A stretch of 64,000 nt of DNA. It comes from an uncultured Conexibacteraceae bacterium (GTDB lineage: Bacteria > Actinomycetota > Thermoleophilia > Solirubrobacterales > Solirubrobacteraceae). The stretch covers positions 717,703 to 781,702 of the forward strand of contig CAWJPB010000005.1 in assembly GCA_963844665.1 (NCBI GenBank), given 5' to 3'. The translations under genes were made by a program, and so were the position numbers. Below, piece after piece: positions 3,572-59,468 of this stretch (positions within the stretch are counted from its first letter, which is position 1; each line of letters starts with the position of its first letter). The notes beneath the pieces were generated by a model. That model was given only the letters and a program-made list of their open reading frames with translations. It did not search any database and was not told the origin of the DNA.

Positions 3572-3582
3572 GCTTCTCTTTC

Positions 3583-4563: not shown

Positions 4564-5506
4564 GGCGCACCCGTGGGTCGGCGGCGGCGATCGAGATGTC
4601 GGCCAGCAGGTTTCCAAGCACGGTCAGGATCGCGCCCAGCAGCGTATATGCAAGCAGTACGTTGTAGTCCTGATTGCCGAGGGCGTTGTAGAACAGCAGG
4701 CCGGTGCCGGGGTAGTTGAACAGGTACTCGATCAGTAGGTTGCCGGCCAGCAGAGTCGGGATCGAGAGACCGACCAGCGTGATGATCGGCAGACAGGCAT
4801 TTCGGAACAGATGGCGGACCAGCACCGTCCGCTCCGAGAGACCCTTTGCGCGCGCCAGGCGGATGTAGTCCTGTGCCATCTCATCCAGCGCCGAGGAGCG
4901 CATGTAGCGGCTGAAGCCGGCCACGTTGAGCAGCGTCAGCGTCAGGATCGGCAGGAACAGCTGATCGGGATGGGTGACCGCCTGCCAGGTTGTCGTGATC
5001 TCGTCACTGACGCCGACCGGGAAGATGTTGAGGTCGAGCGCGAAGATCTGGATCAAAATGACGCCCAGGAAGAACGAGGGCATCGAGTAGAGCGTGAAGT
5101 TGATCGCGGTCGCCGCGTAGTCGCCGGGGCTGTTGCGCTTGACCGCCTGAGCGATGCCAAGCGGAACGGCGATCAGAAGCGATAGCACCAACGCGGCGCC
5201 GGATAGGTAGGCGCTGCGGCCCGCGGTCTCCTTGAACAGCGAGTTGACACTCTGACCGAGCTTGTAGCTGTAACCGAAGTTCAGGTGTGCGACGCTGCCC
5301 AGGTAGCTGAGGAATTGGGCGATCTCCGGGCGATCGTAACCGTGCTGTTTGTCCCACGCCAGCACAGCCTGACGGGATGCCCTGCTGCCGAGCACCGTGT
5401 ATGCGGGCGTCGGCGAGATGACGTGCAGGATCGCAAACGTCACCGCCGCGACGCCGATGACGACGATGATCGCGGTCCCTAGCCGGCGAATGATGTAGCC
5501 GAGCAT
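4556..5506 (-). CDS. OppB/DppB-type ABC permease
   Basis: YIIRRL start, QDYIRLARAKGL, EYLFNYPGTG, DPRVR end. Confidence 0.92.
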   Translation of the reverse strand: MLGYIIRRLGTAIIVVIGVAAVTFAILHVISPTPAYTVLGSRASRQAVLAWDKQHGYDRPEIAQFLSYLGSVAHLNFGYSYKLGQSVNSLFKETAGRSAYLSGAALVLSLLIAVPLGIAQAVKRNSPGDYAATAINFTLYSMPSFFLGVILIQIFALDLNIFPVGVSDEITTTWQAVTHPDQLFLPILTLTLLNVAGFSRYMRSSALDEMAQDYIRLARAKGLSERTVLVRHLFRNACLPIITLVGLSIPTLLAGNLLIEYLFNYPGTGLLFYNALGNQDYNVLLAYTLLGAILTVLGNLLADISIAAADPRVRLD

Positions 5507-40926: not shown

Positions 40927-41402
40927 AGCAGGCTGGGGACGAGATCGTCGCGGCGCTCGGCAACTGGCGCGCGGCCGGCGCCACGGCGCTGGTGGTCGCG
41001 ATCGACGGATACGGCGCGTCGGGCAAGACCACGCTGGCGAAGGAGGTGGGCGCGACTCTGGACGCAGTGGTGCTTCACACCGACGACCACCTCCACGCAG
41101 CGCAACTCGGCGACGACCCACGGCCGATGGCCCAGTATTACGACTGGGAAAGATTGCGCGGGTGCGTAACCGCCACTGTCGCGCCGGTCATCCTGGTCGA
41201 GGGCGTGTCCTCGGCGTCGCCGGCACTGGCCGACCTGGTCACACATGCCGTGTTCGTCGCCACGCCAGAGCCCGTGCGGCTCCAGCGCCTGCACGCGCGA
41301 GTCAGCGACCAGGAGTGGGACGAGGCCTGGCTCGTCGCCGAGCGCGTCTACTTTGCGACCCGTCCGCCGGAATCATTCGACCTGGTTGTGTCCGGGGCCT
41401 AG
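40923..41402 (+). CDS. Uridine-kinase-like P-loop kinase
   Basis: AIDGYGASGKTT, HTDD, ILVEG; GTGA overlap with the upstream gene. Confidence 0.7.
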   Translation: MKQAGDEIVAALGNWRAAGATALVVAIDGYGASGKTTLAKEVGATLDAVVLHTDDHLHAAQLGDDPRPMAQYYDWERLRGCVTATVAPVILVEGVSSASPALADLVTHAVFVATPEPVRLQRLHARVSDQEWDEAWLVAERVYFATRPPESFDLVVSGA

Positions 41403-41561
41403 GGTCCATAGGGAAATCAGTTGCGGGAATTGACGAGGGGCTGGGCGTGTCTGGGAAGTCCGTCTCGCAAGGCAGGTACTGGTGGCACCTGCCGCGAGAC
41501 AGGCGCACCCAGGCGCGTCCGGACGCCGTCAGAACCGCAGGTAATTTTCATGCGAACCATC

Positions 41562-41567
41562 TAGAAT
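41562..41567 (+). promoter_or_regulatory. Putative -10 element for the riboswitch leader
   Basis: TAGAAT about 13 nt upstream of the aptamer; no clear -35. Confidence 0.4.
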
Positions 41568-41580
41568 CAAAGGTCGATAA

Positions 41581-41660
41581 CGCGGGAGTCCATTGGGCTG
41601 AGAGGGCGCTGTAAGGCGCCGACCGTAGAACCTGATCCGGGTCATGCCGGCGGAGGGAGA
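41581..41660 (+). promoter_or_regulatory. TPP (THI-box) riboswitch
   Basis: GCGGGAG...CTGAGAG...GACCG..GAACCTGATCCGGGTCATGCCGGCGGAGGGA; P2 GCGG/CCGU, P3 GUCC/GGGC, extra stem GGCGC/GCGCC, P4 CCU/AGG, P5 CGG/CCG; P1 not obvious by eye. Confidence 0.9.
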
Positions 41661-41665
41661 GAGCA

Positions 41666-43563
41666 GTGATTCGCAGGTGGCGTTTTGGGTTGGCGGCCGT
41701 TGCCGCAGCTCTCGTGGTTGCCGCGTGCGGCTCCTCGTCGCCTGGCAACTCAACCTCGACCGGCGCAGGGACCCGTCAGGTGACAGCAAGCACGGGCACA
41801 CCGATCACCGGCGGCACCGCCTACTGGGCCGAGCAGCCGCTGCAGCCGCCGAACTACATCTTTCCGCTGATCTCCGGCGAGTACTACTCGAACGCGAATG
41901 TCTATGAGTTCCAGACGCTCATGTACCGGCAGCTGTACTTGTACGGAGACAGGGGCAAGCCGAGCGTCGACTACCCGCTGTCACTGGGCGATGCGCCCGT
42001 CTACAGCGACGGTGACCGTGTCGTCACGATCCGCCTGAAGCCGGCCAAGTGGTCAAACGGCGATCCGGTCAGTGCGCGCGATGTGATCTTCTGGATCAAC
42101 CTGCTGAAGGCCAACAGGGCCGATTGGGCCTCTTACGTCCCGGGCGGATTCCCGGACAACGTGGTCTCGGCGACGGCGACCGGCGCCCGCAGCGTGCGGC
42201 TGCGGCTGAACCGCAGCTACAACCCGGTGTGGTTCACCAACAACGAGCTGTCGCAGATCACGCCCCTGCCGATGGCATGGGACAGAACCCGCCTGGACCC
42301 GTTCCACGCAACGCCGAAGCCGACCGATCCGCACCTCCCCGATACCACCGCCGCGGGCGCGAGGCAGGTCTATATGTTCCTGAACGAACAGGCCAAGGAT
42401 CCGTCGAGCTATGCGTCCAGCCCGATCTGGTCGGTCGTAGACGGGCCGTGGAAGCTCTCACAGCTCACCGCCAACGGTGAGGCGACGTTCGTCCCGAACC
42501 CGCACTACGACGGGCCCAACAGGCCGAAGCTGGCGAGGTTCGTCGAGCTGCCGTTCACCAGTGAGGAGGCCGAGTTCTCGGTGCTGAAGGCCGGCTCGTC
42601 GAAGGGCGACATCGGCGGCTCGGCACCGCAGATCTCCGTCGGCTACATCCCCGACACCGACGTCCCTCAGGGCTCGTCGCTGAAGTCCCAGGGTTACCGG
42701 CTGAGTGCGTTCTACCCATACGGCTTCGACTACTTCGAGCCGAACTTCTCAAACCGGCCGTCGGCCCGATCCTGCGGCAGCTGTACTTCCGTCAGGCGTT
42801 CGAGCATCTCGTCGACCAGGAGGGCTGGATTCACGCCTACTACCAGGGGCTCGGCGTTCCGACCTACAGCCCCGTCCCGGCCCAACCCTCGAATCCATAC
42901 TCCAACGGCGAGTCGAAATCGAATCCGTATCCGTTCAGCGTCGCGAGGGCCGCGAGCATCCTCAAGTCTCACGGATGGAAGGTCAGTTCCAACGGCCTCA
43001 CCACCTGTGCCCACCCGGGCACCGGCAGCGGCGAATGCGGCGTCGGCATTCCGGCTGGCAAGCCGTTGCGGTTCAGCCTGATGTACCCGAACGGCATGTC
43101 CTCCACCGATGGCGCGATGGTCGATCTGCAGTCGGACGCGCGACGAGTCGGGATCGAAATCGCGCTCAAGGAGGTCACGACCACGACGATCGATGCGGAG
43201 ATCGAGCCGTGCAAGGCAGGGACCTCGGCCTGCGGCTGGCAGCTCGGCCAGTACGGCAGCGCCTGGGTGTTCGCACCCGACCACTATCCGACCGGTGAGG
43301 AGATCTTCCAGACCGGTGCGCTCGGCAACGTCGGCAGCTACTCGAATCCGACGATAGACAGGCTGATCAAGGCCACGACCACGACTCCGGCGGCAAGCGC
43401 GCAGAGAGCACTCGACGCCTATGCCAACGCCGTGCGCATCCAGTTGCCCGACTTCTGGCAACCGTCGCCGGGCACGCTGCTCAGCTTCCAGTCCAACCTC
43501 GCTGGCGCGACCCCCAACGCCTACGGGTATCTGAGCCCGGAGGAGTGGTACTTCACGAGGTGA
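41666..43563 (+). CDS. Family 5 ABC substrate-binding lipoprotein with one frameshift at about 42754
   Basis: Lipobox VAAC; WSNGDPVSARDV, WSVVDGPWK; a missing C (AAC-CG for AAC-CCG) joins ORF 41666 to the frame of ORF 43066-43563. Confidence 0.85.
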
Positions 43564-44507
43564 CGACCTTCGTACTCCGTCGCCTTGCCCAGGCCGTGGG
43601 CGTGTTGATCGGCGTAACGCTCGTCGTCTTCATCCTCGAGCAGTTGACGCCCGGGAGTCTCCCGCACGCGATCCTCGGGCCGCGCGCGAGCCCAGGGGCG
43701 GTCTCAGCGTTCAAAGCCGCAAACGGGCTCGATCATTCGGTGGTCGTCCAGTACCTCGACTTCCTCGGGCACCTCCTGCGAGGCAATCTCGGCTACTCAT
43801 ATCGGCTCAACCAGAGCGTTGGCTCGCTGGTCGCCCACCAGGCGCCGAACGATCTGATTCTGGTCGGACTCGGGCTCGTCTTTGCGCTCCTGGTGGCGAT
43901 ACCGCTCGGCCTGGCCCAGGCGGCGCGGCGTGACAGCGCGCTTGACCATGCCTTCACCGGATCGTCGCTGGCGCTCTACTCGATGCCGTCCTACTGGCTC
44001 GCGCTGGTGTTGATCGCAGTGTTCAGCATCGGCACGCACCTGCTGCCGCCGGAGGCCGACCAGTCAGGGGCGACCGCCGGCATCCTGGCCGAACCGCTCG
44101 GGCTGGTGCTGCCGGTCCTGACACTGACGCTTGTCAACGTTGCTTGGTTCAGCCGCTACATGCGGTCGTCGGCGATCGACACGCTTGCTCAGGACTACGT
44201 GCAGCTCGCTCGCGCCAAGGGCCTGCCGGAACGACTTGTGATGTCGAGCCATGTGCTGCGCAACTCGCTGCTGACGGTCGTGACGCTGGTCGGCATGTCA
44301 GTTCCGATGCTGCTGACCGCAGGGCTCGTCGTCGAGTACGTGTTCAACATCCCCGGCGTCGGTCTGAGCTACTGGACGGCCGCCTCCAACTCCGACTACC
44401 CGGTCGAGCTCGGGGTGACCGTCGTTGTCGGAGCCGCGACTGTCCTAGGCAGCCTGCTGGCCGATCTCGCCTACGCCGTCCTGGATCCCAGGGTCAGACT
44501 CCGATGA
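43560..44507 (+). CDS. OppB/DppB-type ABC permease
   Basis: QDYVQLARAKGL, EYVFNIPGVG, DPRVR; GTGA overlap. Confidence 0.9.
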   Translation: MTTFVLRRLAQAVGVLIGVTLVVFILEQLTPGSLPHAILGPRASPGAVSAFKAANGLDHSVVVQYLDFLGHLLRGNLGYSYRLNQSVGSLVAHQAPNDLILVGLGLVFALLVAIPLGLAQAARRDSALDHAFTGSSLALYSMPSYWLALVLIAVFSIGTHLLPPEADQSGATAGILAEPLGLVLPVLTLTLVNVAWFSRYMRSSAIDTLAQDYVQLARAKGLPERLVMSSHVLRNSLLTVVTLVGMSVPMLLTAGLVVEYVFNIPGVGLSYWTAASNSDYPVELGVTVVVGAATVLGSLLADLAYAVLDPRVRLR

Positions 44508-45355
44508 CGCGCGAATTCGTGCGGAACCGTCGCGGCATGACCGGGCTCGCGTTGATCGCGGTGCTCGTCCTGTTCTGTTTCATCGGGCCGCTCGTACACC
44601 CGACCGACCAGATCCATGCAAACGTCGCGATCACGAACATGGCGCCCGGTGACGGCCATCCGCTCGGCACCGACGCCAACGGCTACGACGTGCTCGGACG
44701 ACTGATGGCCGGCGGCCGCGCCACGCTGGAGATCGCGTTTGCCGTCGCGTTGCTCGCAACATTGCTGGGTGCGTTCTGGGGTGCATTGGCAGGCATCAGC
44801 GGGGGCGCCCTGGATGCGCTGATGATGCGCATCGTCGACACGCTGCTGGCGCTGCCGGCGATCTTTGTGCTGATCTACCTGGCGACCGTGGTCCAGCCGA
44901 CGGTGGTGCTGCTGATCGTCGTGATCTCGCTGCTGTCGTGGCTTGGTCCCGCACGTCTGATCCGTGGCGAGACGCTCAGCCTTGGCACGCGCGAGTTCGT
45001 CCAGGCAGCGCGGGCGATGGGCGGCGGAAGGACGCGGACGATCGTTCGCCACGTGCTGCCCAACACGTTCGGCACGATCGGCGTGAACGCAAGCTTCCAG
45101 GTCGCTGACGCGATCATCCTGCTGGCGACGCTGAGCTTCCTCGGCTTCGGTCTGGCGGCTCCGGCTGCAACCTGGGGCGGAATGCTCTCCCAGGGCACGT
45201 CGTATCTACTCGACGGCTATTGGTGGGAGGTGTATCCGGCCGGAGTCCTGATCATGGTGACCGTGATCGCCTTCAACCTGGTGGGCGCTGGGCTGGACGA
45301 CGTTGTCAATCCGCGTCGGCGATCGCGGCTCGAGCGAGCAGCAAGCGCTCCTTGA
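44504..45355 (+). CDS. OppC/DppC-type ABC permease
   Basis: HPLGTDANGYD, REFVQAARAMG, ATWGGML. Confidence 0.9.
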   Translation: MTREFVRNRRGMTGLALIAVLVLFCFIGPLVHPTDQIHANVAITNMAPGDGHPLGTDANGYDVLGRLMAGGRATLEIAFAVALLATLLGAFWGALAGISGGALDALMMRIVDTLLALPAIFVLIYLATVVQPTVVLLIVVISLLSWLGPARLIRGETLSLGTREFVQAARAMGGGRTRTIVRHVLPNTFGTIGVNASFQVADAIILLATLSFLGFGLAAPAATWGGMLSQGTSYLLDGYWWEVYPAGVLIMVTVIAFNLVGAGLDDVVNPRRRSRLERAASAP

Positions 45356-45770
45356 TCCCGGCGTAGAGCTCTTCGCCGAGGACCTCCCGCGCCTCCTGCT
45401 CCATTGCCTGCTCGATCGCCATCTCCTCGGCCAGGGCACGCTCGCCCGCTGGAGTGATATGGAGCCCGACCCCGCGGCCGTGGCCAACTCGCCGCTCGAC
45501 ATAGCCGAGCCGCTCCAGCCGGCCCGTGACTTGGCTGATGGCCTGCTGCGTCTTGAAAGCGCCCCGGGCAAGCGCGCTGGCGGTCACTCCGGGACTCGCC
45601 GCGATTCTGGCCAGCGCGCCCGCTGACGCAAACGTGAGCTGGGTCGGGGCCAGGCGAGGTTCGGAGAGCGCCATCCAGCGCGCCGACGTCTCCCACAGCA
45701 GGTGTCCGAAGTTGTCGCTGCCGGGGGCGTCCGCGAACCGCTCGTCGATGTGTGGTTCATCGTTACCCAT
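45306..45770 (-). CDS. MarR family transcriptional regulator
   Basis: wHTH: TQQAISQVTGRLERLGYVER...ITPAG; divergent from the MFS gene. Confidence 0.85.
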   Translation of the reverse strand: MGNDEPHIDERFADAPGSDNFGHLLWETSARWMALSEPRLAPTQLTFASAGALARIAASPGVTASALARGAFKTQQAISQVTGRLERLGYVERRVGHGRGVGLHITPAGERALAEEMAIEQAMEQEAREVLGEELYAGIKERLLLARAAIADAD

Positions 45771-45818
45771 GATCGTCTGACGGGCAGCCTATCGGTGAGC
45801 CAGCCATCGGACGCCTTC

Positions 45819-45850
45819 ACAAGGTACTTGTAATCACAAGTCCTTGTGAT
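45819..45850. promoter_or_regulatory. Two palindromes, candidate MarR operators
   Basis: ACAAG-GTA-CTTGT (45819-45831) and ATCACAAG-TC-CTTGTGAT (45833-45850) between marR and the MFS gene. Confidence 0.65.
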
Positions 45851-45864
45851 ACGCTCTCCAGTGC

Positions 45865-47313
45865 ATGACGAAAGATCACGAACTTCACAAGAACTGGACC
45901 CTGTTCGCCGCCTGCCTCGGCACCTTCATGCTGCTGGTCGACGTGACGATCATCATCGTCGCGCTGCCGAGCATCCGCGCGTCCCTGCACACGAGCTTCT
46001 CCGATGTGCAGTGGACCATCGACGCGTATTCGCTTACGCTCGCCTCCCTGCTGTTGGTATTCGGCTCGCTTGGCGACATCCTCGGCCGCCGCCGCGTGTT
46101 CGCCGGCGGGCTGACCGTCTTCACACTCGGCTCGCTGCTGTGCGGTGTCTCAAGCTCCGGCCTGATGCTCGTGTTGTGCCGCGCCTTCCAGGGCATCGGC
46201 GGCGCCACGATCCTGCCGACCGCGCTGGCGCTCGTCGCGCAGACCTTCACCGGCAAGGAGCGCGGGTTCGCGTTCGGCGTCTGGGGAGCCGTTGCCGGTG
46301 CGGCGACAGGGATCGGACCACTGCTGGGAGGATTGCTGACAACCGAGCTCAGCTGGCGCTGGATCTTCTTCGTGAACCTGCCGATCGGTGCCGTCGCGAT
46401 CCTGATCACGCTGACACGCGTACGTGAGTTCCGGCCGCCGAAGGCGCGCCGGATCGACGTGCCCGGGTTCATCGTCTTCACAGCCGGGCTCTTTTCGCTG
46501 ATCTACGGGCTGATCGAGGCGGGCCGGGACGGCTGGGGCAGCACGCACGTGATCGTCGCGCTGGCTCTGGCGGTGGTGCTGCTGGCCGCCTTCCCGCTGG
46601 TCGAGCGCGCACGAAAAGAGCCGATGTTCGACCTTCGCCTGTTCCACAAACCGACGTTTGTCGGCGGCTCGATCGCCGGCTTCGGGATGAACGGCTCGCT
46701 GTTCGCGATGCTGCTCTACATCACGCTGTACCTGCAGACGGCGCAGGGGTTCTCGCCGCTCCAGGCCGGCCTGCGCCAGGCGATCATCACCTTCTCGATG
46801 ATGGCGACCGCGATTCCGGCCGGGCGGGCATCCCAGCGCGTGCCGGCGCGATGGCTGATCGGGATCGGACTGCTGATCGTCGGCGCCGGCCTGCTGCTGA
46901 TGCGCGGCCTGACCGCGGATTCGGATTGGACCGCGCTGCTGGCAGGCTTCATCGTCGCCGGCGCAGGAGCCGGGCTCGTAAACCCGCCGTTGGCTTCAAC
47001 CGCGATCGGCGTCGTCGCCCCGCAGGACGCAGGCATGGCCTCCGGGATCAACAACACCTTCCGCCAGGTCGGGCTCGCCACGGCCGTGGCCACGTTCGGC
47101 ACGATCTTCGCCCACGACCTTGCCGGCGTGACGTCGACGACCGTGCGCGGCGTCTATGCCTCGACGCTCAACGAGCTGCTGCTGATCGCGGCCTGCGTCG
47201 CGTTCGTCGCAGGCGCCTTCTCGCTGGTGCTGATCCGGCAGCGCGACTTCGTCGCGCACGGGGCGCCAACGGGCGTGCAGCCCTCACCGTCGCAGCCGCA
47301 GCCGGTCGGGTGA
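45865..47313 (+). CDS. MFS transporter, DHA2 (EmrB/QacA) family
   Basis: GSLGDILGRRR motif A, WRWIFFVNLPIG, 14 TM. Confidence 0.92.
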   Translation: MTKDHELHKNWTLFAACLGTFMLLVDVTIIIVALPSIRASLHTSFSDVQWTIDAYSLTLASLLLVFGSLGDILGRRRVFAGGLTVFTLGSLLCGVSSSGLMLVLCRAFQGIGGATILPTALALVAQTFTGKERGFAFGVWGAVAGAATGIGPLLGGLLTTELSWRWIFFVNLPIGAVAILITLTRVREFRPPKARRIDVPGFIVFTAGLFSLIYGLIEAGRDGWGSTHVIVALALAVVLLAAFPLVERARKEPMFDLRLFHKPTFVGGSIAGFGMNGSLFAMLLYITLYLQTAQGFSPLQAGLRQAIITFSMMATAIPAGRASQRVPARWLIGIGLLIVGAGLLLMRGLTADSDWTALLAGFIVAGAGAGLVNPPLASTAIGVVAPQDAGMASGINNTFRQVGLATAVATFGTIFAHDLAGVTSTTVRGVYASTLNELLLIAACVAFVAGAFSLVLIRQRDFVAHGAPTGVQPSPSQPQPVG

Positions 47314-47369
47314 CCGCGGCGTCGCAGCCGGGTAGTCGGCCAAGCGGGGCCGGCTGCCCGGGAGACAGC

Positions 47370-47804
47370 TCAGGCGAGCTCTGATAACGGCAGGTCGTCG
47401 GGCAGCGGCACCGTCTGCGGGGTGCCCGGCTCAAATTCTTCCCAGGCGTTGAACGCCTCCGCGTCACGTGGAGCGTGCTCGTGCGCGGCCTCGCCGCCGA
47501 GCGCGAGCAGGCGGAGGACGGCCGGGCCACGGTTGACGAGCTGCCGGCGCACCTCAGGCGCGACCCGCACCAAGTCGCCGACCGTGTACTGCTGGGGCTC
47601 GCCTTCAACCATCAGCGTCAGCGTGCCGTCGAGGACGACGTAAACCTCCTCCTGCAGCCGATGGCGGTGGATGCGGTTGCGCTCGCCAGCCTCGAGCACG
47701 ATCACGTTGATTCCGAACGAGCTCACGCCCAGCTGTGCGCGCAGCCGCGCGAACCGCTGCTCGGGCTCCTGGTCGAGCCGCGCGGTGCTGACGCCGTCCG
47801 GCAT
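47370..47804 (-). CDS. Cupin domain protein
   Basis: HRHRLQEEVYVVLDG, VAPEVRRQL. Confidence 0.8.
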   Translation of the reverse strand: MPDGVSTARLDQEPEQRFARLRAQLGVSSFGINVIVLEAGERNRIHRHRLQEEVYVVLDGTLTLMVEGEPQQYTVGDLVRVAPEVRRQLVNRGPAVLRLLALGGEAAHEHAPRDAEAFNAWEEFEPGTPQTVPLPDDLPLSELA

Positions 47805-49133
<1,329 letters not shown>

Positions 49134-49223
49134 GGCAATCCTCTCAAGCTCTTCGTCTGATCTCAGCTGCCCAGCACACCCTTCGGCTGCAGAGTAGTAC
49201 CAGGAGAGCTTCGGCGGTCGCGT

Positions 49224-49820
49224 TCACCTGCCGTCGGCGGCCCCGGGACCGCCCTCATAGCGACTCTCAGTCGCAGCGCGCTGGCCCTGGTAGTGGCTGC
49301 CGAGGCCGGGGCTGCCATAGGGCCGCTGTGCCGGTCTGTCGAGCGTCATGAACGACAGCTGGGCAATCGGCAGATCAGGATAGAGCCGGATCGGCACACG
49401 CGTCAGGTTGTTGAGCTCGAGCGTCAACGTGCCCTCGAACCCGGGGTCGCAGAAGCCGGCTGTCGCATGCACGATCAAGCCCAGCCGCCCGAGGCTCGAC
49501 TTGCCCTCGATCCGAGCCACGATGTCATCCGGGATGCTGACCCACTCGAGTGTTCGCCCCAGGCAGAACTCGCCGGGATGGATCACGAACGGCTCACCGG
49601 GCGGGACCACGACCTCCTCGGTCAGATTGGCCGGCGGGTCCCGCAGATCGATTGCCGTCGCCCGGTGGTTGTGGAAGACCCGGAACGAGTCTCCGAGCCG
49701 CAGGTCGACGCTGGCCGGCTGCACCATCTGAGGATCCCAGGGATCGATCCTGATACGGCCCTCATCAACGAGCTCAAGGATCGTCCCGTCGGAGAGAACG
49801 GATGCAGGCGCGTGACTCAT
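49224..49820 (-). CDS. dcd: dCTP deaminase
   Basis: QPASVDLRL, EGKSSLGRLG, DPGFEGTLTLE, YQGQ. Confidence 0.93.
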   Translation of the reverse strand: MSHAPASVLSDGTILELVDEGRIRIDPWDPQMVQPASVDLRLGDSFRVFHNHRATAIDLRDPPANLTEEVVVPPGEPFVIHPGEFCLGRTLEWVSIPDDIVARIEGKSSLGRLGLIVHATAGFCDPGFEGTLTLELNNLTRVPIRLYPDLPIAQLSFMTLDRPAQRPYGSPGLGSHYQGQRAATESRYEGGPGAADGR

Positions 49821-52255
49821 CGGCGCCGCAGTTTGTCACCCTCAGGGTCGTAAAGCGGCTCAGCCGCAACCTCACCCTGCACCCACTGTCCAAAAATGTC
49901 GATCTCGACGGTCGCGCCGATCGAGACCTCGGATGGCAGGTAGGCGTAGGCGATCGAGCGCTGCACGGCGTAGCCGTACCCGCCGCTGGTGACGCGGCCG
50001 ACGATCTCGTCGCCGACGCGTACCGGCTCGTTCCCGAGCGCGACCGAGCGCGGATCTGACAGGATGACGCACCGCAGGCGCCGCTCAACCGGCCGCTCGC
50101 GCAGCGCGTCCGAGCCGTTGAAGTCCTTATCGGCGGCGACGCAGAAATCGAGTCCGGCCTCGTACGGGCTGTCGTCAGCGGTGATGTCTGCGGCCCAGGC
50201 CCGATAGCCCTTCTCGAGACGCAGCGACTCGATCGCGCGATAGCCGCCGGCGACGATTCCGACCTCCCGCCCCGAATCCCACAGCTCCCGCCACAACCCC
50301 AGTCCGTACTCACTGGGGCAGTAGAGCTCCCAGCCGAACTCACCGACATAGGTCACGCGCAGCGCTCGCACCGGCACGTCGCCGACGGTCAGCTCGCACA
50401 TCCGCATGAAGCCGAAATCCAGCGGGTCAGGGGTGAGCGGCGCCAGCACCGCATGCGCCTGCGGCCCCCACAGCGCGAAGCAGGCCCAGCGTGAGGTCAC
50501 GTCGCTGAGCGCGACGGAGCCGTCATCCGGCAGCTGCCTGCGGATCCAGGCGGCGTCGTGCTGACCGAATGCGGTGCCGGTGACGATCTGGAACAGCTCC
50601 TCGCCGACACGCGTGACTGTTATGTCGGATTCGATGCCGCCGTGGCGGTTGAGCATCTGCGTGTAGCTGATCTGACCGACCTCGCGCGCGACGCGGTTGT
50701 CACAGAGTCGCTCGAGCAGCCCGGCTGCACCCGGGCCCGAGAGCTCGAGCTTGCTGAAGGACGATTCGTCGAACAGGCCCGCGCGCTCGCGTGTGCCCAA
50801 CGCCTCAGCGCCGATCGCCTTGGACCAGTGCATGCCCGCCCACCCACGGGGGCGCAGCTCGGCGTTGCCAGCCGGCGCGTTGGGCTCGTACCAGTTGACC
50901 CGTTCCCAGCCGGACTTCTCTCCAAAGACCGCACCGTGCTCGACGTGCCAGCTGTAAGCCGGCGGAATCCGCAGCGGCCTTCCCGCCAGCCGCTCGTGGC
51001 CGGGGTAGCGGATGTCGTAGTAGGTCTCGTAGACCTCAGTAGTGCGCTTTAGCGTGTAGCTCGGCGAGCGGTACTGCATGCCGAACCGACGGATGTCCAT
51101 CTCCCAGACGTCCAGGTCGGGCTCGCCCGCAACGATCCACTCGGCCATCAACTTGCCCATGCCGCCGGCGCCCGCCAGTCCGTGCGCGCAGAATCCGGCC
51201 GCCACGAAGAAACCGCGCACGTCGCTCTCGCCGAGGCAGAACTCGTTGTCAGGCGTGAACGCTTCCGGGCCGTTGATCAGGCGAGTGACCTGGACATCCT
51301 CCATCAGCGGTACGCGTCTGCGGGAGTTCTCGGCGATCTCTTCAAACCGTGGCCAGTCCTCCTCGAGCAGGCGGCCGTTGAAGTCGGCCGGAATGTGGTC
51401 GACCAGTTGGCCGTTGAGCGCCCACGGAGCGCTGTGGCGCTCATAACCGCCCATCACAAGTCCGGCTCCCTCCTCGCGGAAATAGATCAGCAGGTCGGGA
51501 TCACGCAACGTCGGCAGGTGCACGATCTCACCGTCCGCGTCGCGGTCTCGCTCACGGAACGGCTGCGTCACCAGGTACTCGTGCGCGAACGGCACGATCG
51601 GCACGCGCACACCCGCGAGCCGGCCGATCTCGGCCGCATACATGCCGCCGGCGTTCACCACCACCTCAGCCTCGATCCGCCCCCATTCGGTATCCACCGC
51701 ACGGACGCGACCATCAACCACCTCGATCCCCGTAACGCGAGTGTGCGTGAAGATCTGAACGTCGCCCGCGCGGGCACCGTCGGCCAGCGCGTACGTCAGC
51801 TGCGACGGGTCGAGGTAACCGTCAGTCGGCAGATAGGAGCCGCAACGGACAGCGTCCGTGATCATCAGCGGGAACAGCTCGCGCGCCTCCTCGGCCCCAA
51901 TCAGCTCGAGCGGCAGGCCGAACGTGCGCGCCCACGCAACCTGCCGTAGCACCTCCTGCTCACGCTCCGGAGTGCACGCCAGGCGGATCCCGCCGCACTC
52001 GACCCAGCCGCAGTCCAGCGTGCGGTAGAGCGCCACCGAGTCCATCATCATCCGCGTCAGCGAGACACTGCCGCGCAACTGTCCGACCAGGCCTGCGGAA
52101 TGGAAGGTCGAGCCGCTCGTCAGCTCGTTGCGGTCAAGCAGAATCACCTCCCGCTCGCCGAGCTGGGCGAGGTGGTAGGCGATCGAGGTACCGCCAACGC
52201 CTCCGCCGATGATCACGATCTTGGCCCGCTCGGGCAATTCACGCGGTCGCGGCAT
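49817..52255 (-). CDS. GcvT-family FAD-dependent oxidoreductase (dimethylglycine/sarcosine dehydrogenase-like)
   Basis: IIGGGVGG, GSTFHSAG, GPEAFTPD, C-terminal GcvT folate-binding domain (LRLEKGY). Confidence 0.9.
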   Translation of the reverse strand: MPRPRELPERAKIVIIGGGVGGTSIAYHLAQLGEREVILLDRNELTSGSTFHSAGLVGQLRGSVSLTRMMMDSVALYRTLDCGWVECGGIRLACTPEREQEVLRQVAWARTFGLPLELIGAEEARELFPLMITDAVRCGSYLPTDGYLDPSQLTYALADGARAGDVQIFTHTRVTGIEVVDGRVRAVDTEWGRIEAEVVVNAGGMYAAEIGRLAGVRVPIVPFAHEYLVTQPFRERDRDADGEIVHLPTLRDPDLLIYFREEGAGLVMGGYERHSAPWALNGQLVDHIPADFNGRLLEEDWPRFEEIAENSRRRVPLMEDVQVTRLINGPEAFTPDNEFCLGESDVRGFFVAAGFCAHGLAGAGGMGKLMAEWIVAGEPDLDVWEMDIRRFGMQYRSPSYTLKRTTEVYETYYDIRYPGHERLAGRPLRIPPAYSWHVEHGAVFGEKSGWERVNWYEPNAPAGNAELRPRGWAGMHWSKAIGAEALGTRERAGLFDESSFSKLELSGPGAAGLLERLCDNRVAREVGQISYTQMLNRHGGIESDITVTRVGEELFQIVTGTAFGQHDAAWIRRQLPDDGSVALSDVTSRWACFALWGPQAHAVLAPLTPDPLDFGFMRMCELTVGDVPVRALRVTYVGEFGWELYCPSEYGLGLWRELWDSGREVGIVAGGYRAIESLRLEKGYRAWAADITADDSPYEAGLDFCVAADKDFNGSDALRERPVERRLRCVILSDPRSVALGNEPVRVGDEIVGRVTSGGYGYAVQRSIAYAYLPSEVSIGATVEIDIFGQWVQGEVAAEPLYDPEGDKLRRR

Positions 52256-53312
52256 CAGTGATCGCCGCCGTCGACCGGGCCGCACCGAGAGTCGTCATCT
52301 GGGGGTGTCTGACGAGGATGCAGGAGGCGTCGCGCAGCAGCGCTGCGCGAGCCTCCGAAGACGCTGTCAGACGCCGCCGGGGGCGGCTCGAATGCGGGAG
52401 GGTCGGCGGTGGCGGTCACTAGGTATTCCTCCAGTCGCGGGTCGGCGGCGGCCCGTTCGAGCCGCTCAAAGTGTTCGTCGGCGTAGGCTGTGAAGTCGAA
52501 GTCCAGCTCGGAGATCAGTCCCAGAGACCACACCCCAGGCCGCCTCGCGAGCGTCTGAGACGAGCCGATAGAGCCGCAGCGCCGCAAGCCGCGAATCGCG
52601 CGTGGGCCCGCCGTCCAGGGTCTCGCCGAAGTAGGCCTCCAGCAGGCGCAGCTCCGCAGCCTCGTCAAACTCGTTGTTGACCGCAAGGTTGCCCAGGTCG
52701 AAGTAGCGGTGACCAATCCCGGCGTACTCCCAGTCGACCAGCAGGATCTCGTGCTCGGTCTGGATCAGGTTGCCGGCCAGCAGATCGTCGTGGCACGGCA
52801 CCGGATCGTCGAGCGGCAGCACTGCGGTGATCCGCTCGACCAGCGCCCGGGCGCGCCTCGTACCCGGCGGGCAGCCGCGCCGGCGCGCTCGCGCACGGTC
52901 TGCGCGTAGTCGCTCAGCAGGTCAGGAATCCAGAACCGCACCGGCAACTCGAGTCCGCTGTCGTGGAACGCCCGCAGGGCTCGCGCAACCGGGCCTGGGT
53001 CGGCGCGCAGATCGCCGGGCTCGACTCGGTCGCCGGGAACGAACGCGGTCACCGCGCAGTCGCGCGTCTGCATACAGCAGCTCGGGACCGATCCCGAGGC
53101 TCGCCGCCCGTTCGGTCGCGAGCCGCTCCGCAGCGCGGTCGATGCCGAGCAGCTCGTGTCGCGGCCGGGGAGCCGCAGGACGCAGTCGCGCCCGCCCAGA
53201 CGCAGGCGGTAATTGCGGTTCGTGATGCCACCACTGATCGGCGCCGGCGGCCGTCGACGCCGGGCCCAGCTCGCGCTCGAGCCGTCGCAATCAGCTCGCT
53301 CAGCTCGGACAA
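52255..53312 (-). pseudogene. Choline/ethanolamine kinase-family phosphotransferase, multiply frameshifted (or sequence errors)
   Basis: Fragments SGGITNRNY, VLRLPG, CHDDLLAGN, LVDWEYAG..RYFDLGN spread over several frames; TGATG overlap with the gcvT-like gene. Confidence 0.8.
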
Positions 53313-53415
53313 GCAGTCGAATCGGACCTTGCCCTATAAGGCTCGGCTCATATACCTTCATGGCTGTGCAATCACACAGCCGTGTGGAGCCGATCGTCAA
53401 GGGGAAGGTGGGTCC

Positions 53416-54748
53416 GTGGAGCTCGAAGCACTGAGGGCAGGGAGTCGACGCCGGCGAGATCGAGACCGTCGTGTTCGCACTGACCGACATGCAGGGACGC
53501 CTCCAGGGCAAGCGCCTGACCGCGCGCTACTTCCTCGACGAGGTGCTTGGCCACGGCGCCGAAGGCTGCAACTACCTCCTCGCCGTCGACGTCGAGATGA
53601 ACACCGTCGACGGCTATGCGATGTCGTCGTGGGAGCGCGGATACGGCGACTTCGTGATGCGCCCTGACCTGGCGACCCTGCGGATGGTGCCGTGGGAGGT
53701 GGCAACGGCGATGTGCCTGGCCGATCTCGCCTGGGCGGACGGCGGTCCGACGTCGTCGCCTCGCCGCGCCAGATCCTGCGAGCACAGCTCGCGCGACTGG
53801 CCGAGCGCGGCTGGACCGCCAACGCCTCGACCGAGCTCGAGTTCCTCGTGTTCCGCGACAGCTACGAGCAGGCCTGGAGCAAGGGCTACCGCGAACTCGA
53901 GCCCGGCAACGCCTACAACGTCGACTACTCGCTGCTGGGGACCTCCCGCGTCGAGCCGCTGATCCGCCGGATCCGCAACTCGATGACGGCCGCCGGGCTC
54001 GACGTCGAGAACTCCAAGGGCGAGTGCAACTTCGGGCAGCACGAGATCAACTTCCGCTATGCCGACGCACTGCGCTGCGCCGACAACCACACGGTCTACA
54101 AGAACGGCGCCAAGGAGATCGCCGCCCAGGAGGGCATGGCGATCAGCTTCATGGCGAAGTTCAACGAGCGCGAGGGCAACTCGTGCCACATCCACTTCTC
54201 GATCGCGGACGCGGAGGGCGCGCTGTTCCACCGCGACCGGAAGATGTTCGACGCGTTCCTGGCCGGCCAGCTCGCCCACGCGCAGGAGCTGACGCTGATG
54301 CTTGCGCCGAACATCAACTCCTACAAGCGCTACGCGTCGGCTCGTTCGCGCCGACCACGTCGCCTGGGGCCACGACAACCGCACCTGCGCCCTGCGGGTC
54401 GTCGGCCACGGCGGCGTCGCTGCGGTTCGAGAACCGTTCCGGCGGCGCCGATCTCAACCCGTACCTGGCGCTTGCGGCGTTGATCGCTGCCGGCCTGGAC
54501 GGGCGTCGAGCGCGGGCTCGAGCTCGAGCCCGCCTTCGAGGGCAACGCCTACGAGGCGACCGACAAGCCACGCGTGCCCTCGACACTGCGTGACGCGCGC
54601 GACCTGTTCGCCGCAAGCGAGCTGGCGCGCGGACGCGTTCGGGGAGGAGGTCGTGGCGCACTACCTGAATGCCGCTGACGTCGAGCTCGTGGCATTCGAG
54701 GCGGCCGTGACCGACTGGGAGCGGTTCCGCGGCTTCGAGCGGTTGTGA
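53416..54748 (+). pseudogene. Glutamine synthetase-like gamma-glutamyl ligase (GlnA4/PuuA type), at least five frameshifts
   Basis: DMQGRLQGKR, ELEFLVF, KGECNFGQHEIN, GNSCHIHFS, WGHDNRT, RFENR.GGADLNPY in alternating frames. Confidence 0.85.
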
Positions 54749-55496
54749 ACCGGTCCAACGACGCCGGCAGCACACTCGACGCGGCGGCGTCGCTTGACAC
54801 GGTCTTCGCTCCGGTGCGGTCGCAGACCGCGTTCGAGGAGGCCGTCGACCGGATCGGCACCGCGATCCGGCTCGGCCTGCTGCCGCCCGGCACCCGCCTG
54901 CCGGCCGAGCGCGAGCTATGCGCGAAGCTCGGGATCGCGCGCTCGACGCTGCGCCAGGCGCTGGTCGCGCTCGGCCAGAGCGGCCATCTGCGCGCGATCC
55001 GCGGGCGCGGCGGCGGAACGTTCGTCGTCGACGAGCTGCCGCCGGCACCGCCGCCGCCGGCCGATGCTGATCGACGCGCTGGCGGGCGATGTGGGATCAC
55101 CGCATCGCGCTGCGAGGTAGGCGTCGCCGTGCTCGCCTGCGCGCGAGCCCGGCCCGCGGCGCTGGACGCGCTGGGCGAGCTGGTGACCGCGATGGAGCAG
55201 TCCGCTGGAGGACTTCGCCACCTACCGCCAGCTCGACGTGCGCTTCCACCTCGGGACTGGCCGAGGCGACCGGCAACGCACGGATCATCACGGTCGCCAC
55301 CGAGGTGCAGGGCAACGCGACCCGGCTGATCGCGCTGATCGCGCACCCGGCCGAGGTGCTGAGCTCCTCCAACGTGCAGCACCGGCGGATCCTGGCCGCG
55401 GTCGCGAGCGGCGACGAGGGCGCGACCGCCCGCGAGATGGCCGAGCACCTGCGCGGTACCGAGCACATCCTCGCCGGGCTGCTGCCCGGCGGTTGA
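54745..55496 (+). pseudogene. FadR/GntR family regulator, frameshifted
   Basis: RLPAERELCAKLGIARSTLRQAL, RGRGGGTF, FCD-type C-terminus (MAEHL). Confidence 0.8.
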
Positions 55497-55707
55497 GCGC
55501 AGCCGCAGGGCCCGAGCGGGTCGCTGCAGCGGCGGTGCCTGGCCAGCGGGCCAGCACCGCCGGGCGGAGCTGTGCCGGATGTATGAAGTTGCGCCGCGGC
55601 ACTTGACTTGAGCGACCCCCGTACGTAAGGATCGCGGCCCTAAGGGCCGATTACCGATCCTTTATGTGGGACCGAGCCCGCCATGCGTCGAACACGAGGG
55701 GAGCAGC

Positions 55708-57320
55708 ATGACGACGCGAGACGCTGTCGCCGGACGAACAGCGGCTAGCAGAGCTGGGCTACAAGCAGGAGTTGAAGCGCGGTTGGAGTGGGTTCTCCAA
55801 CTTCGCGATCTCGTTCTCGATCATCTCAGTGCTCGCCGGCTGCTTCACGAGCTACGGCCAGGCGTTCCTCAACGGCGGACCGGTCGCGATCTCGATCGGC
55901 TGGCCGGTCATCAGCTGCCTGATCCTATGCGTCGCGTTCTCGATGGCCGAGCTTGCCTCCGCGATGCCGACCGCGGGCGGGATCTACTACTGGGCCTCGA
56001 AGCTCGGCGGTCCTGGCTGGGGCTGGTTCACCGGCTGGTTCAACCTGATCGGCCTGGTGGCGGTGCGTCGCCTCGGTCGACTACGCGGCAGCGAGCTTCC
56101 TGCATGCTCTGCTCAGCATGCTCGGCGTCAATTTCATCTTCAATTTCGGCGTCATCGCAACCTGCATTACGGCGCACATGTGGTGTTCGCTCTGTTCCTG
56201 ATCATCCTGATCGCCCACGGGCTGATCAACGTCTTCTCGAGCCATCTGGTGTCGCTTTTCAATGGCATTTCAGTCTGGTGGCATGTGATCGGCGTGGCCG
56301 TGATCGTGGTCGTCCTGGTAGTGGCCCCGAGCCATCACGCCAGCCTCTCCTACGTGTTCACGCACCCGCTCGTACGGCGGCTTCAGTTCACCACATGTAC
56401 TGGTTCTACGTGCTGCCACTCGGGTTCCTGCTGACGATGTACACGATCACCGGCTACGACGCCTCGGCTCACGTCTCGGAGGAGACCAACGACGCAGCCG
56501 AGTCGGCGCCGAAGGGCGTCTGGCGGTCGGTCTTCTACTCTGCGGTGATCGGCTGGATCCTGCTGCTGGCGCTGACGTTCGCGGTGCAGAAGTCACAGCT
56601 CAGCGACGATCAGCTCGGCGGGCTTCCCCGCCATCGCGATCCTGCACGACGGCGCTCAGCGCCGACCGCCGCCAAGTTGGTCCTCACGATCTCCGTCGTC
56701 GGCCAGCTGTTCTGCGGCATGGCCTGCGTGACCAGCGCGTCGCGGATGACGTTCGCGTTCTCCCGCGACGGCGCGATTCCCGGCCACAACCTGTGGCGGC
56801 GACTGGGCGCCAACGGAAGACCCCCACGTGGGCGGTTCTGTTCGTGTGCGTGATGGCGGCGCATCGTCACGATCCCCGCGTTCTTCCCCAACAGCGCCGG
56901 TTATCCCGGTCGCGTTCTTCGCGGTCACCTCGATCTCCGTGATCGGCCTCTACATCGCCTACACGATCCCGGTCTTCCTGCGCTGGCGGATGGGTTCCAG
57001 CTTCCAGCCAGGGCCGTGGACGCTCGGCAGGCAAGTACAAGTGGCTGAACGTGATCGCGGTCGTCTGGGTCGCCCTGTGCGTGATCATCTTCTGCCTGCC
57101 GACGTCTCACCGGCTGGCGTCTACTTCTACGAGCGGCTTCAGCTGGGGTTCGGTCAACTATGCTCCGCTGGTGACGCTCGGCGTTATGGCCGTGGTCACG
57201 ATCTGGTACCTCGTGTCGGCCCGGAAGACTTTCACCGGGCCGGTCCGCACGGTGGACGACAACGTCTTCCACGAGGTCGAGGGGCTCGGAACGATCGCGC
57301 CGGGACCCGCCTCGCCGTGA
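55708..57320 (+). pseudogene. APC amino acid/amine permease, multiply frameshifted
   Basis: LGYKQELKR, NFAISFSIIS, AMPTAGGIYYW, TGYDASAHVSEET, SRMTFAFSRDG, NYAP. Confidence 0.82.
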
Positions 57321-57352
57321 TCGCTTCGATTTCGTAGCAACCGAAAGGTCGT

Positions 57353-58728
57353 ATGACGGAAGTGCTGACGGTCCTCGAGCCCGCCACCGAGGCGGTGCTC
57401 GAGCAGGTCCCGAGTGCCGGGGTCGAAGCAGGTTGACGAGGCTGTTGCACGAGCCCGCGCCGCGCTGCCTGCTTGGCGCGGGCTGGCGCCCGGCTGCCAG
57501 AGCGGCCCAGCTGCGCGCGCTCGGCGGACAAGGTCGAGGAGCACCTCGACGAGCTGGCGTTGCTCGAGGCCCGAAACGCCGGCAAGCCGCTCGCTTCGGC
57601 CCGAGGGGAGATCGGGGCAGGTGGCCGAGATCTTCCGCTACTACTCCGGCGCGGCCGAGCGGCTCATGGGCGACACGATCCCGGTCGCGGGCGGCCTGGC
57701 GTTCACCGTCCGTGAGCCGCTCGGCGTCGTCGGGCCTGATCGTGCCGTGGAACTTTCCGCTGACTGATCGCCGCCTGGAAGCTCGGGCCGGCACTGGCGG
57801 CCGGCAACACGGTGGTCCTGAAGCCCGCCGAACTTACGCCGCTGACGGCGCTGCGCTTCGAACAGCTGGTGCTCGAGGCAGGCGATCGCCCCTGGCGTCG
57901 TCAACGTCGTCGCGGGCCATGGCCCGATTGCCGGAGCGCGGCTGGTCGAGCACCCGGATGTCGCCAAGATCGCGTTCACCGGCTCGACCGCGGTCGGCCG
58001 CTCGATCGCGGCCGGCGCCGCGCAGACGATCAAGCGGGTGACACTCGAACTCGGTGGCAAATCGGCCAACATCGTCTTTGCCGACGCTGACCTTGAGAAG
58101 GCCGCGGCGGCGGCACCCTGGGCGGTGTTCGACAATGCCGGCCAGGACTGCTGCGCGCGTTCGCGGCTGCTGGTCGAGGCCTCAGTTGCCGATCGCTTCC
58201 TGGAGCTGATGCAGCCGTACGTGGAGGGCTTCAAGAGTCGGCGATCCGCTCGATCCGACCTCTGACATGGGGCCGCTGATCTCCGCCAAGCAACGCGATC
58301 GGGTGGCATCGTTCGCCGCTGCAGACGGCGCATCCGTCGCGTATCGCGGAACCGCCCCGGACGGCCCCGGCTTCTGGTTCCCGCCGACGGTGCTGGCGCC
58401 GGCCGATCCACAGTCTCCGGCGGTGCGCGAGGAGATCTTCGGCCCGGTCGTGGCGGTGATCCCTTTCCGCGACGAGGAGGAGGCCGTGCGGATCGCCAAC
58501 GATACGATCTACGGCCTCTCAGGTTCGATCTGGACGCGCGACGGCGGCCGCGCCCTGCGGGTCGCGCGCGCGCTCGAGAGCGGAGTGCTATCGATCAACT
58601 CCAATTCGTCGGTGCGCGTATCAACCCCCTTCGGAGGCTTCAAGCAATCCGGCTACGGCCGCGAGCTTGGGCCCCACGCGACCGACGCCTACACCGAAAC
58701 CAAAACCATCTATTACGCAACCACATGA
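57353..58728 (+). pseudogene. Aldehyde dehydrogenase, multiply frameshifted
   Basis: [38 protein letters not shown]. Confidence 0.85.
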
Positions 58729-59468
58729 CACGCCTACAAGACAAAGTCGCAGTTATCACCGGCGCCGCCGGCGGCATCGGCCTGGCCACCGCCGAGGTGT
58801 TCGCCGCTGAAGGTGCACACGTAGTCGGCGTCGACCTGGTCGAGCATCAGGTCGGCGAACTCTCGCTCCAAGCAGACCTCACCGAAGAGAACGCCGTGAT
58901 CGAGATGTACAGAGCCACACGCGAGAAGTTCGGCAAGATCGACGTGCTGTTCAACAATGCCGGGATCTCGCCGACCGACGATGACTCGGTGCTCGTCACC
59001 GGGCTCGACGCCTGGCAGCGGGTGCAGGATGCCAACCTCAAGAGCGTGTTCCTGTGCTGCAAGTACGGGATCCCGCACCTGCTCGAGACCGGCGGCGGCT
59101 CGGTCATCAACACCGCCTCATTCGTGGCCGTGATGGGCGCCGCCACATCGCAGATCTCCTACACCGCGTCAAAGGGCGGGGTGCTGGCGATGTCACGTGA
59201 ACTCGGCGTCGAGTTCGCCAAGAGCGGGGTGCGAGTGAACGCGATCTGCCCCGGGCCGGTCAGCACGCCGCTGCTGATCGAGTTGTTCGCCAAGGACCCC
59301 GAGCGTGCGGCCCGCCGGCTGGTGCACGTGCCGATGGGCCGCTTCGGCCAGGCCGATGAGATTGCCAAGGCGGTGCTGTTCCTCGCCAGTGACGATTCAT
59401 CGTTCATGACCGCGTCCTCACTGCTGGTGGACGGCGGCATCAACGGCGCCTATACGACTCCGCTCTGA
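58725..59468 (+). CDS. Short-chain dehydrogenase/reductase
   Basis: [17 protein letters not shown]; intact. Confidence 0.92.

Follow-up and report, generated by a model that had tools for sequence, protein, structure and literature searches.

A TPP riboswitch-controlled PepT-type ABC transporter as a candidate importer of thiamine or thiamine phosphates in Actinomycetota

Introduction

Uptake of thiamine and its phosphate esters by a substrate-binding protein (SBP)-dependent ATP-binding cassette (ABC) importer under a thiamine pyrophosphate (TPP) riboswitch is known from the ThiBPQ system of Escherichia coli and Salmonella (TbpA/ThiB-ThiP-ThiQ; TC 3.A.1.19), whose hosts finish TPP via ThiL. 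In this study, a system of the same general kind was analyzed in a 64,000-nucleotide stretch of DNA from an uncultured Conexibacteraceae bacterium (GenBank assembly GCA_963844665.1, contig CAWJPB010000005.1, positions 717,703 to 781,702; hereafter the window). A TPP riboswitch was found there directly before three genes encoding a family-5 SBP lipoprotein, an OppB-like permease and an OppC-like permease, and completion of TPP via ThiL is proposed for this host as well. We estimate a probability of about 70% that the operon encodes a PepT-type ABC importer of thiamine or its phosphate esters, thiamine monophosphate (TMP) or TPP, in thiamine-auxotrophic Actinomycetota. Compared with ThiBPQ, the present system belonged to another ABC family. 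ThiB is a small SBP of the family-1, iron/thiamine type, and ThiBPQ comes with a single fused permease and an ATPase of its own, whereas in the present system a pair of Opp-type permeases was encoded without an ATPase gene.

The Opp/Dpp/Nik importers (PepT, TC 3.A.1.5), such as E. coli OppABCDF and NikABCDE and Bacillus subtilis AppA, have the SBP_bac_5 fold, the OppB/OppC-type permeases, the OppC_N domain and the translational coupling in common with the present system. The latter was different in its divergent SBP of about 630 amino acids, in the OppD/F genes missing from the operon, and in its control by a TPP riboswitch.

The TPP-regulated transporters of 249 genomes included thiXYZ, ykoFEDC, cytX, thiU, thiW, ecfA/T, thiT, pnuT, thiBPQ and omp_thi (PMC3766115). 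No Opp/Dpp-type system was among the 19 transporter genes that Rodionov and colleagues list (PMC3766115, Additional file 5), in agreement with an earlier, sequence-only reading of the window, which held that the known transporters of TPP regulons are not of the peptide family. Like the present system, ThiXYZ, YkoEDC, CytX, ThiT and PnuT are riboswitch-tagged uptake systems of species with an incomplete thiamine pathway. The SBP of ThiXYZ is NMT1/THI5-like (PF09084), whereas that of the present operon belonged to PF00496 and not to PF09084. Full-text literature searches, including those on Solirubrobacterales, gave no prior description of a TPP riboswitch with an Opp/Dpp-type transporter. Furthermore, no family-5 SBP is known to bind thiamine.

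Results and Discussion

The TPP riboswitch of the window

The Rfam model of the TPP riboswitch (RF00059) matched positions 41572 to 41675 of the forward strand over its full length (model positions 1-105), with a score of 57.3 bits against a gathering threshold of 54.3 and an E value of 1.3e-8. It was the sole above-gathering match when all of the window was scanned with Rfam, and no other TPP riboswitch was found in the genome of the assembly holding the window (3.27 Mb, 92% complete; named G000; the other host genomes compared are G001 to G039). This result bore out the sequence-only reading, in which a THI-box with its conserved elements had been recognized before the SBP gene. The aptamer core occupied 41581 to 41659. 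It contained CUGAGA of the pyrimidine-sensor arm at 41599-41604 and ACCUGAUC..GG..CCGGCG of the pyrophosphate-sensor arm within 41630-41653, and ACCUGAUCCGGGUCAUGCCGGCG was also present in the THI element sequence. The columns of CUGAGA and ACCUGAUC..GG..CCGGCG were invariant in the aptamer alignment (A2), and our own covariance model (R1) gave the window aptamer 86.8 bits. For the 12 SBP-linked copies scored with RF00059, that of the window included, eight were at or above the gathering threshold and four were at 52-53 bits. Minimum free energy folding gave no useful signal for the leader (z-score 0.41), as is usual for aptamers needing tertiary contacts, and the covariance models and covariation were therefore relied on. 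Judged by these models, the element is a genuine TPP riboswitch, and it is predicted to respond to TPP.

Conservation of the riboswitch-SBP link

When one genome per species was searched by alignment, 80 loci with SBP orthologues at 43-82% identity were obtained, from Solirubrobacterales/Conexibacteraceae, Acidimicrobiales, metagenome-assembled genomes (MAGs) carrying the label Streptosporangiaceae, and a single Dormibacteria MAG. A covariance model made from the SBP-linked aptamers that RF00059 had matched in genomes of this set detected a coding-strand aptamer just 5' of the SBP gene in 51 of the 80 loci. Since five loci were cut off at the 5' end, 75 were scorable, and 51/75 were riboswitch-positive. 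The positive loci included both Solirubrobacterales and Acidimicrobiales, so that THI-boxes do precede orthologous SBPs in other Thermoleophilia and Acidimicrobiia, a point which the sequence-only reading had marked for checking. A strict THI-box regular expression found 30 of the 80 and was dropped, as it missed the Acidimicrobiales-type and MFD-type aptamers. In whole-genome scans with RF00059, a match directly 5' of the SBP was observed in 11 of 20 genomes (12 of 21 counting G000), and in 11 of these 12 genomes it was the sole TPP riboswitch.

On the SBP tree, each of the three main clades within a group of 99% support contained the riboswitch, namely Solirubrobacterales (27/29), 'Streptosporangiaceae'/MFD (15/21) and Acidimicrobiales (9/19), while the deep outgroups were without it. 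The presence of the riboswitch required 12 state changes on the tree, compared with 23 for shuffled labels. This distribution fits an old association of riboswitch and SBP with repeated loss. In the alignment of 48 SBP-linked aptamers, 98.7% of the base-pair cells were paired, and compensatory (double) changes were found in 7 of 22 pairs. The covariation score was 0.191, compared with 0.106 for shuffled alignments (0 of 500 reached the observed value) and at most 0.047 for slid controls.

Proposed regulatory mechanism

The in-frame start codon of the SBP gene was located 0-12 nt past the aptamer 3' end, (G/U/A)AGGGAG, in every one of the 52 instances, the distance being exactly 6 nt in 35. In a case of zero spacing whose downstream sequence was read (locus L039 of G010), an in-frame ATG followed 6 nt further downstream. 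The fixed spacing indicates that the aptamer's own 3' strand is the Shine-Dalgarno sequence. In the window, this sequence was GGAGGGAG at 41652-41659 on the forward strand, within the aptamer's 3' strand (P4 and the closing region), 6 nt 5' of the GTG at 41666. The larger segment GGAGGGAGAG covered 41652-41661 and left a gap of 4 nt before the GTG. The sequence-only reading had placed the aptamer end 5 nt before this codon; the closeness held, but the distance was slightly different. Its view of translational control by an aptamer lying over the Shine-Dalgarno sequence agreed with this invariant design.

No terminator-like hairpin was found in the leader by a terminator scan, and there was no separate expression platform. 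A scan with the promoter consensus of E. coli gave no match in the leader, the consensus being that of E. coli. In nearly all of the 36 loci inspected, a TANNNT hexamer was present 13-19 nt 5' of the aptamer core, which indicates that the leader is essentially the aptamer alone. In the window, the -10-like hexamer TAGAAT of this type at 41562-41567 (forward strand) is probably the promoter, judged by this conserved position, and the predicted transcript start lies a few nucleotides before the aptamer.

According to the proposed mechanism, transcription would start from the TANNNT -10 element just 5' of the aptamer. When cytoplasmic TPP is high, TPP would bind the aptamer, and the ligand-bound aptamer would lock its 3' segment GGAGGGAG, so that translation of the SBP is blocked, probably along with that of the translationally coupled permeases. 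When TPP is low, the ribosome-binding site would be free and the SBP would be made. The lipoprotein would then capture the vitamin and pass it on to the two OppB/OppC-like permeases, for which OppD/F-type ATPases from genes outside the operon would supply the energy, and the imported vitamin would be finished to TPP via ThiL.

Thiamine pathway in the host genomes

The thiamine-gene content was surveyed in 40 host genomes, 22 of which were riboswitch-positive. ThiC was not found in 38 of the 40. The two ThiC-positive genomes carried the most divergent SBP orthologues, and the riboswitch there was on thiC. True ThiG was present in only 8 of the 40 genomes, every one with a riboswitch-less SBP, and both ThiC and ThiG were missing from all 22 riboswitch-positive genomes. 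Genomes with a riboswitch-less SBP had a TPP riboswitch on thiC, thiO or cytX instead. From this gene content, the riboswitch-positive hosts are predicted to be thiamine auxotrophs. ThiT, Pnu-family and ThiB importers were seen in none of the 40 genomes; for ThiB, there was no above-cut-off match to TIGR01276, and a tblastn search of G000 with E. coli ThiB gave nothing.

In G000, searches with profile hidden Markov models, or by tblastn with E. coli and actinobacterial probes, found no ThiC, ThiD, ThiG, ThiM, ThiO, ThiB or CytX. ThiL was present with 260 bits against a cut-off of 184, and it was kept in the thiamine-auxotrophic hosts. Thiamine pyrophosphokinase (TPK) was not found in G000 to G005. 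A ThiK-like gene of the aminoglycoside phosphotransferase (APH)/choline-kinase type at about 52.3-53.4 kb of the window, 7 kb downstream of the operon, was considered as the missing thiamine kinase and rejected as part of the system. Its orthologue in G002 scored 71 bits with the thiK model TIGR02721 (cut-off 299) and 173 bits with GntI (cut-off 357). The gene adjoins glutamine-synthetase-like and GntR genes. Orthologues were found only in G000, G001, G002 and G029 and not in G003 to G005, with no co-occurrence with the SBP system.

Two further loci of G000, both outside the window, carry thiamine-related domains. At C5:1045415-1046566 (reverse strand), a TMP-TENI (ThiE-like) domain of 165 bits was fused to a C-terminal part of about four transmembrane helices, beside genes for lipoamide dehydrogenase and an E2 acyltransferase; open frames of similar size were seen in G002 to G005, G011 and G029. 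At C1:404187-406680 (forward strand), genes for an ABC ATPase and a permease, together with one for an NMT1/THI5-like lipoprotein SBP, formed a ThiZXY-like system downstream of MoxR-like and VWA genes, the SBP having a PF09084 score of 67.7 bits and a Thr/Ser-rich insert.

In the riboswitch-less subclade of G009, G034 and G039, the SBP-OppBC genes were followed directly by thiZ-thiX-thiY (NMT1), and a thiO/thiG/thiD/thiE cluster was located a few kilobases beyond. This neighbourhood was confirmed by Pfam in G034, and was taken from coordinates and open reading frame (ORF) sizes in G009 and G039. It is an independent context that supports a role in thiamine metabolism for the family. In G034, an ORF with ricin-type lectin and Toxin_10 (P42-like) domains (L134:474-1598, reverse strand) was observed just 5' of the riboswitch-less SBP operon.

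Operon genes and family placement

The ORF from 41666 begins with MIRRWRFGLAAVAAALVVAAC, a lipoprotein signal (…VVAAC) in which the lipobox Cys21 was invariant. It is interrupted by a frameshift (discussed below) and continues to a TGA stop at 43561-43563. The gene for the OppB-like permease was located at 43545-44507 (forward strand), with its start at GTG 43560 or GTG 43545, and had BPD_transp_1 and BPD_transp_1_N domains of 132 and 34.8 bits. The gene for the OppC-like permease, at 44504-45355 (forward strand), had an OppC_N domain of 36 bits and a BPD_transp_1 domain of 91.2 bits. The genes overlapped by GTGA at 43560-43563 (SBP/OppB-like, with the start at 43560) and by ATGA at 44504-44507 (OppB-like/OppC-like). 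Thus, the family-5 SBP lipoprotein and the OppB and OppC permeases with 4-nt overlaps, as given in the sequence-only reading, were recovered; that the SBP gene is frameshifted and that ATPase genes are missing had been overlooked there.

The system possessed a family-5 cluster-C SBP (PF00496) and two permeases of the OppB and OppC type, both traits of PepT, but dedicated OppD/OppF ATPases were not encoded with it. About 65 of the 80 orthologous loci also had no ABC ATPase after OppC and kept the three-gene architecture. Four OppD/F pairs were found elsewhere in G000, each beside its own permeases. From these two observations, the ATPases of the present system are most likely shared. One of the four pairs belongs to a full Opp-type set with oppB, oppC, oppD and oppF homologues at 1502-5506 of the window (reverse strand), 36 kb upstream; like the other three pairs, it could energise the ATPase-less permeases. 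At five loci (L036, L042, L044, L057 and L075; four of them riboswitch-positive), no OppB/OppC homologue was detected 3' of the SBP with E. coli probes, and an ABC ATPase was located 3-5 kb upstream of it. These may be lone SBPs or have another architecture. In the window, the OppC-like gene faces a convergent MarR-family gene (45306-45770, reverse strand), the two sharing about 50 nt at the 3' end of the former, and an MFS_1 transporter gene in divergent orientation comes next (45865-47313).

The SBP showed 13-18% identity to solved family-5 members, with the best sequence match in the PDB at 38.6 bits. Scores against the NCBIfam equivalogs were far below cut-off (Opp4A 40.7 bits against 650, NikA 30.4 against 393), and these models placed the SBP in none of the specificity groups that have been characterised, such as those for peptides, nickel or opines. 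Similarly, the OppB-like permease was below every equivalog cut-off (best, Opp2B with 240.7 against 350), and the best match of the OppC-like permease was Opp4C with 269 against 350. The AlphaFold2 model of an SBP orthologue (P0001; pLDDT 77) had the cluster-C fold, and its best Foldseek match was AppA (1xoc), with a TM-score of 0.83 normalised to the target. Its neighbours AppA, NikZ and OppA had scores of 0.7-0.83, with about 0.8 for 1xoc, 8efz, 4oeu and 7kz8. Family-5 SBPs among these structural neighbours bind non-peptide ligands, including Ni-His, sialic acid, chitin oligomers, EDTA and opines.

The frameshift in the SBP gene

In the frame of GTG 41666, good SBP sequence continued to …FEPNFSN at 42754 and was followed by R/S/P-rich nonsense, and the remaining SBP sequence (PAVGPILRQLYFRQAF… to the stop ending at 43563) was in another frame. 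The 5' part (41666-42754) and the 3' part (42754-43563), both on the forward strand, matched complementary parts of the PF00496 (SBP_bac_5) profile, with 66.8 bits over profile positions 12-171 and 54.9 bits over 212-346, respectively. The window was 1 nt shorter than 10 of 10 aligned orthologues directly after an AAC codon. This single deletion at about 42755 (42752-42756, forward strand) was the only unpaired indel in the gene compared with the closest relative, G002; the raw counts of non-triplet indels against G002 were mostly paired alignment artefacts and served solely as evidence for the unpaired state of the SBP lesion. The two segments were 78% (5') and 87% (3') identical to the G002 orthologue. 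More than 100 homologues, of about 630 amino acids, were intact, and an uninterrupted frame of at least 450 amino acids from the match start was found in 79 of the 80 loci. Programmed frameshifting at 42752-42756 was rejected, as all orthologues aligned there read straight through.

The assembly contained other frame breaks. Judged by proteins of Conexibacter sp. S30A1, whose genome is complete, 3 of the 118 conserved genes compared had broken frames genome-wide. Within the window, internal frame changes affected at least 6 of 68 genes compared with the collinear G002 region (about 85% nucleotide identity); 11 ORFs had been flagged before probable artefacts of N-terminal ORF extension and a single antisense duplicate were discounted. 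Most of the affected genes were located in 41000-59000, where apparent frame breaks were unusually dense, which suggests locally poor consensus quality. In the ThiK-like gene (52255-53511, reverse strand), the motifs GGITNRNYRL, HDDLLAGNLI and LVDWEYAG were spread over alternating frames, implying at least three frame breaks in about 1 kb, while the gene was intact in the syntenic region of G002 (317 amino acids). In the close relative G001, a ThiE-like gene (C5:154359-154867) was split over three frames and the ThiK-like gene had an internal stop, which suggests that related long-read MAGs contain indel errors as well. The sequence context of the other frame breaks gave no clear homopolymer signature.

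Evaluation of the substrate and of alternative explanations

The first question is which form of thiamine, if any, is transported. The thiamine precursors and breakdown products, such as hydroxymethylpyrimidine (HMP), formylaminopyrimidine (FAMP) or aminomethylpyrimidine (AmMP), or a thiazole such as cHET, deserve consideration in place of the intact vitamin, since TPP riboswitches often control the precursor importers ThiXYZ, CytX and YkoEDC (PMC3766115), and the riboswitch-less genomes G006, G009, G012, G031, G034 and G039 have ThiG, ThiD and ThiE without ThiC and need a pyrimidine source. However, in G000, where ThiC, ThiD, ThiG and ThiM were not found, precursors would be useless and the intact vitamin or a phosphate ester is needed; most other riboswitch-positive hosts also lacked ThiD, ThiG and ThiM, and many ThiE. 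Moreover, ThiZXY adjoins the operon in ThiC-less, ThiG-positive genomes, where a second HMP importer would be redundant, and a dedicated HMP importer next door indicates that the family-5 system carries a distinct substrate. Precursors are accordingly an unlikely cargo. Of the substrates named in the sequence-only reading (thiamine, TPP, or an HMP/thiazole precursor), the vitamin and its phosphate ester were supported by the auxotrophy and the conserved riboswitch link, while the precursor was not. Even less likely, in our judgement, is a cofactor-sparing response, in which a true peptide-type importer would at low TPP bring in a nutrient, peptides or another, by which TPP-dependent biosynthesis is bypassed. 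Such sparing logic is known for B12 riboswitches, the system belongs to the Opp/Dpp/Nik family, and the peptide binders AppA, OppA and DppA were among the top structural neighbours of the SBP. Against it, auxotrophic hosts without ThiT, Pnu and ThiB must import the vitamin somehow, the SBP was very distant from characterised peptide binders, and the operon is chromosomally linked to thiZXY and thiO/G/D/E in riboswitch-less relatives. A narrower form of the vitamin-import reading, in which the dedicated substrate is not free thiamine but its phosphorylated form (TMP and/or TPP), is put forward only tentatively. The hosts, including one with a complete isolate genome, have ThiL and lack TPK, a conserved ThiK-like kinase and the HMP/thiazole enzymes, which would mean that TMP must enter ready-made. 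The roomy cluster-C cavity would then have been recruited for a charged vitamer, and the ATPase-less operon would borrow the OppD/F of a peptide transporter.

Whatever the family does elsewhere, the system might be dead in G000, the 1-nt deletion being real and the SBP a recent pseudogene. The unpaired nature of the lesion and its absence from all ten aligned orthologues speak for this explanation, as does the position of the missing base, which was not within a long homopolymer. On the other side, there was a single lesion between two well-conserved halves, the riboswitch and both permeases were intact, and a thiamine auxotroph in which no further importer is recognised would hardly survive the loss. 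Because the assembly is rich in frame breaks, with the neighbouring kinase gene broken several times, the deletion is probably a consensus or assembly error rather than a real pseudogene, and a dead system appears somewhat doubtful.

Several observations weigh against an importer of thiamine or its phosphate esters. The fold of the SBP does not reveal the ligand, and the SBP gene of the window is frameshifted. No ABC ATPase gene was found in the window 3' of the OppC-like gene. By the covariance model, 24 of the 75 scorable orthologous SBPs were without a riboswitch, some of them in equally auxotrophic genomes (for example G007, G018 and G032 to G038), so the regulation is not universal. In addition, no recognisable thiamine kinase or pyrophosphokinase was found in G000, so that no enzyme is evident for the step from free thiamine to TMP; the ThiE-like domain protein is present despite the absence of ThiD, ThiM and ThiG; and the NMT1/ThiY-like ABC system has no TPP riboswitch. 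Taken with these points, thiamine or one of its phosphate esters is still the most likely ligand.

Implications

Riboswitch-tagged vitamin importers are already known, and what would be new here is the different transporter family, PepT, on which the system is based. From its genomic signature, it looks like a candidate undescribed family of thiamine (or thiamine-phosphate) importers, with members in dozens of genomes at species level, from Solirubrobacterales, Acidimicrobiales and related Actinomycetota of soil and peat. Genes annotated as 'peptide/nickel transport' could be re-annotated, and family-5 SBPs would gain a new ligand class. Conexibacter sp. S30A1 is an isolate with an intact copy, which makes the prediction directly testable. 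Furthermore, a dependence on thiamine or TMP is predicted for hard-to-culture groups, which would be useful for the design of media. If TMP or TPP is the imported form, a ThiL-only salvage lifestyle would exist in abundant soil and peat Actinomycetota. The PepT-type system may therefore be the route by which hosts without ThiC and the classical thiamine transporters obtain vitamin B1.

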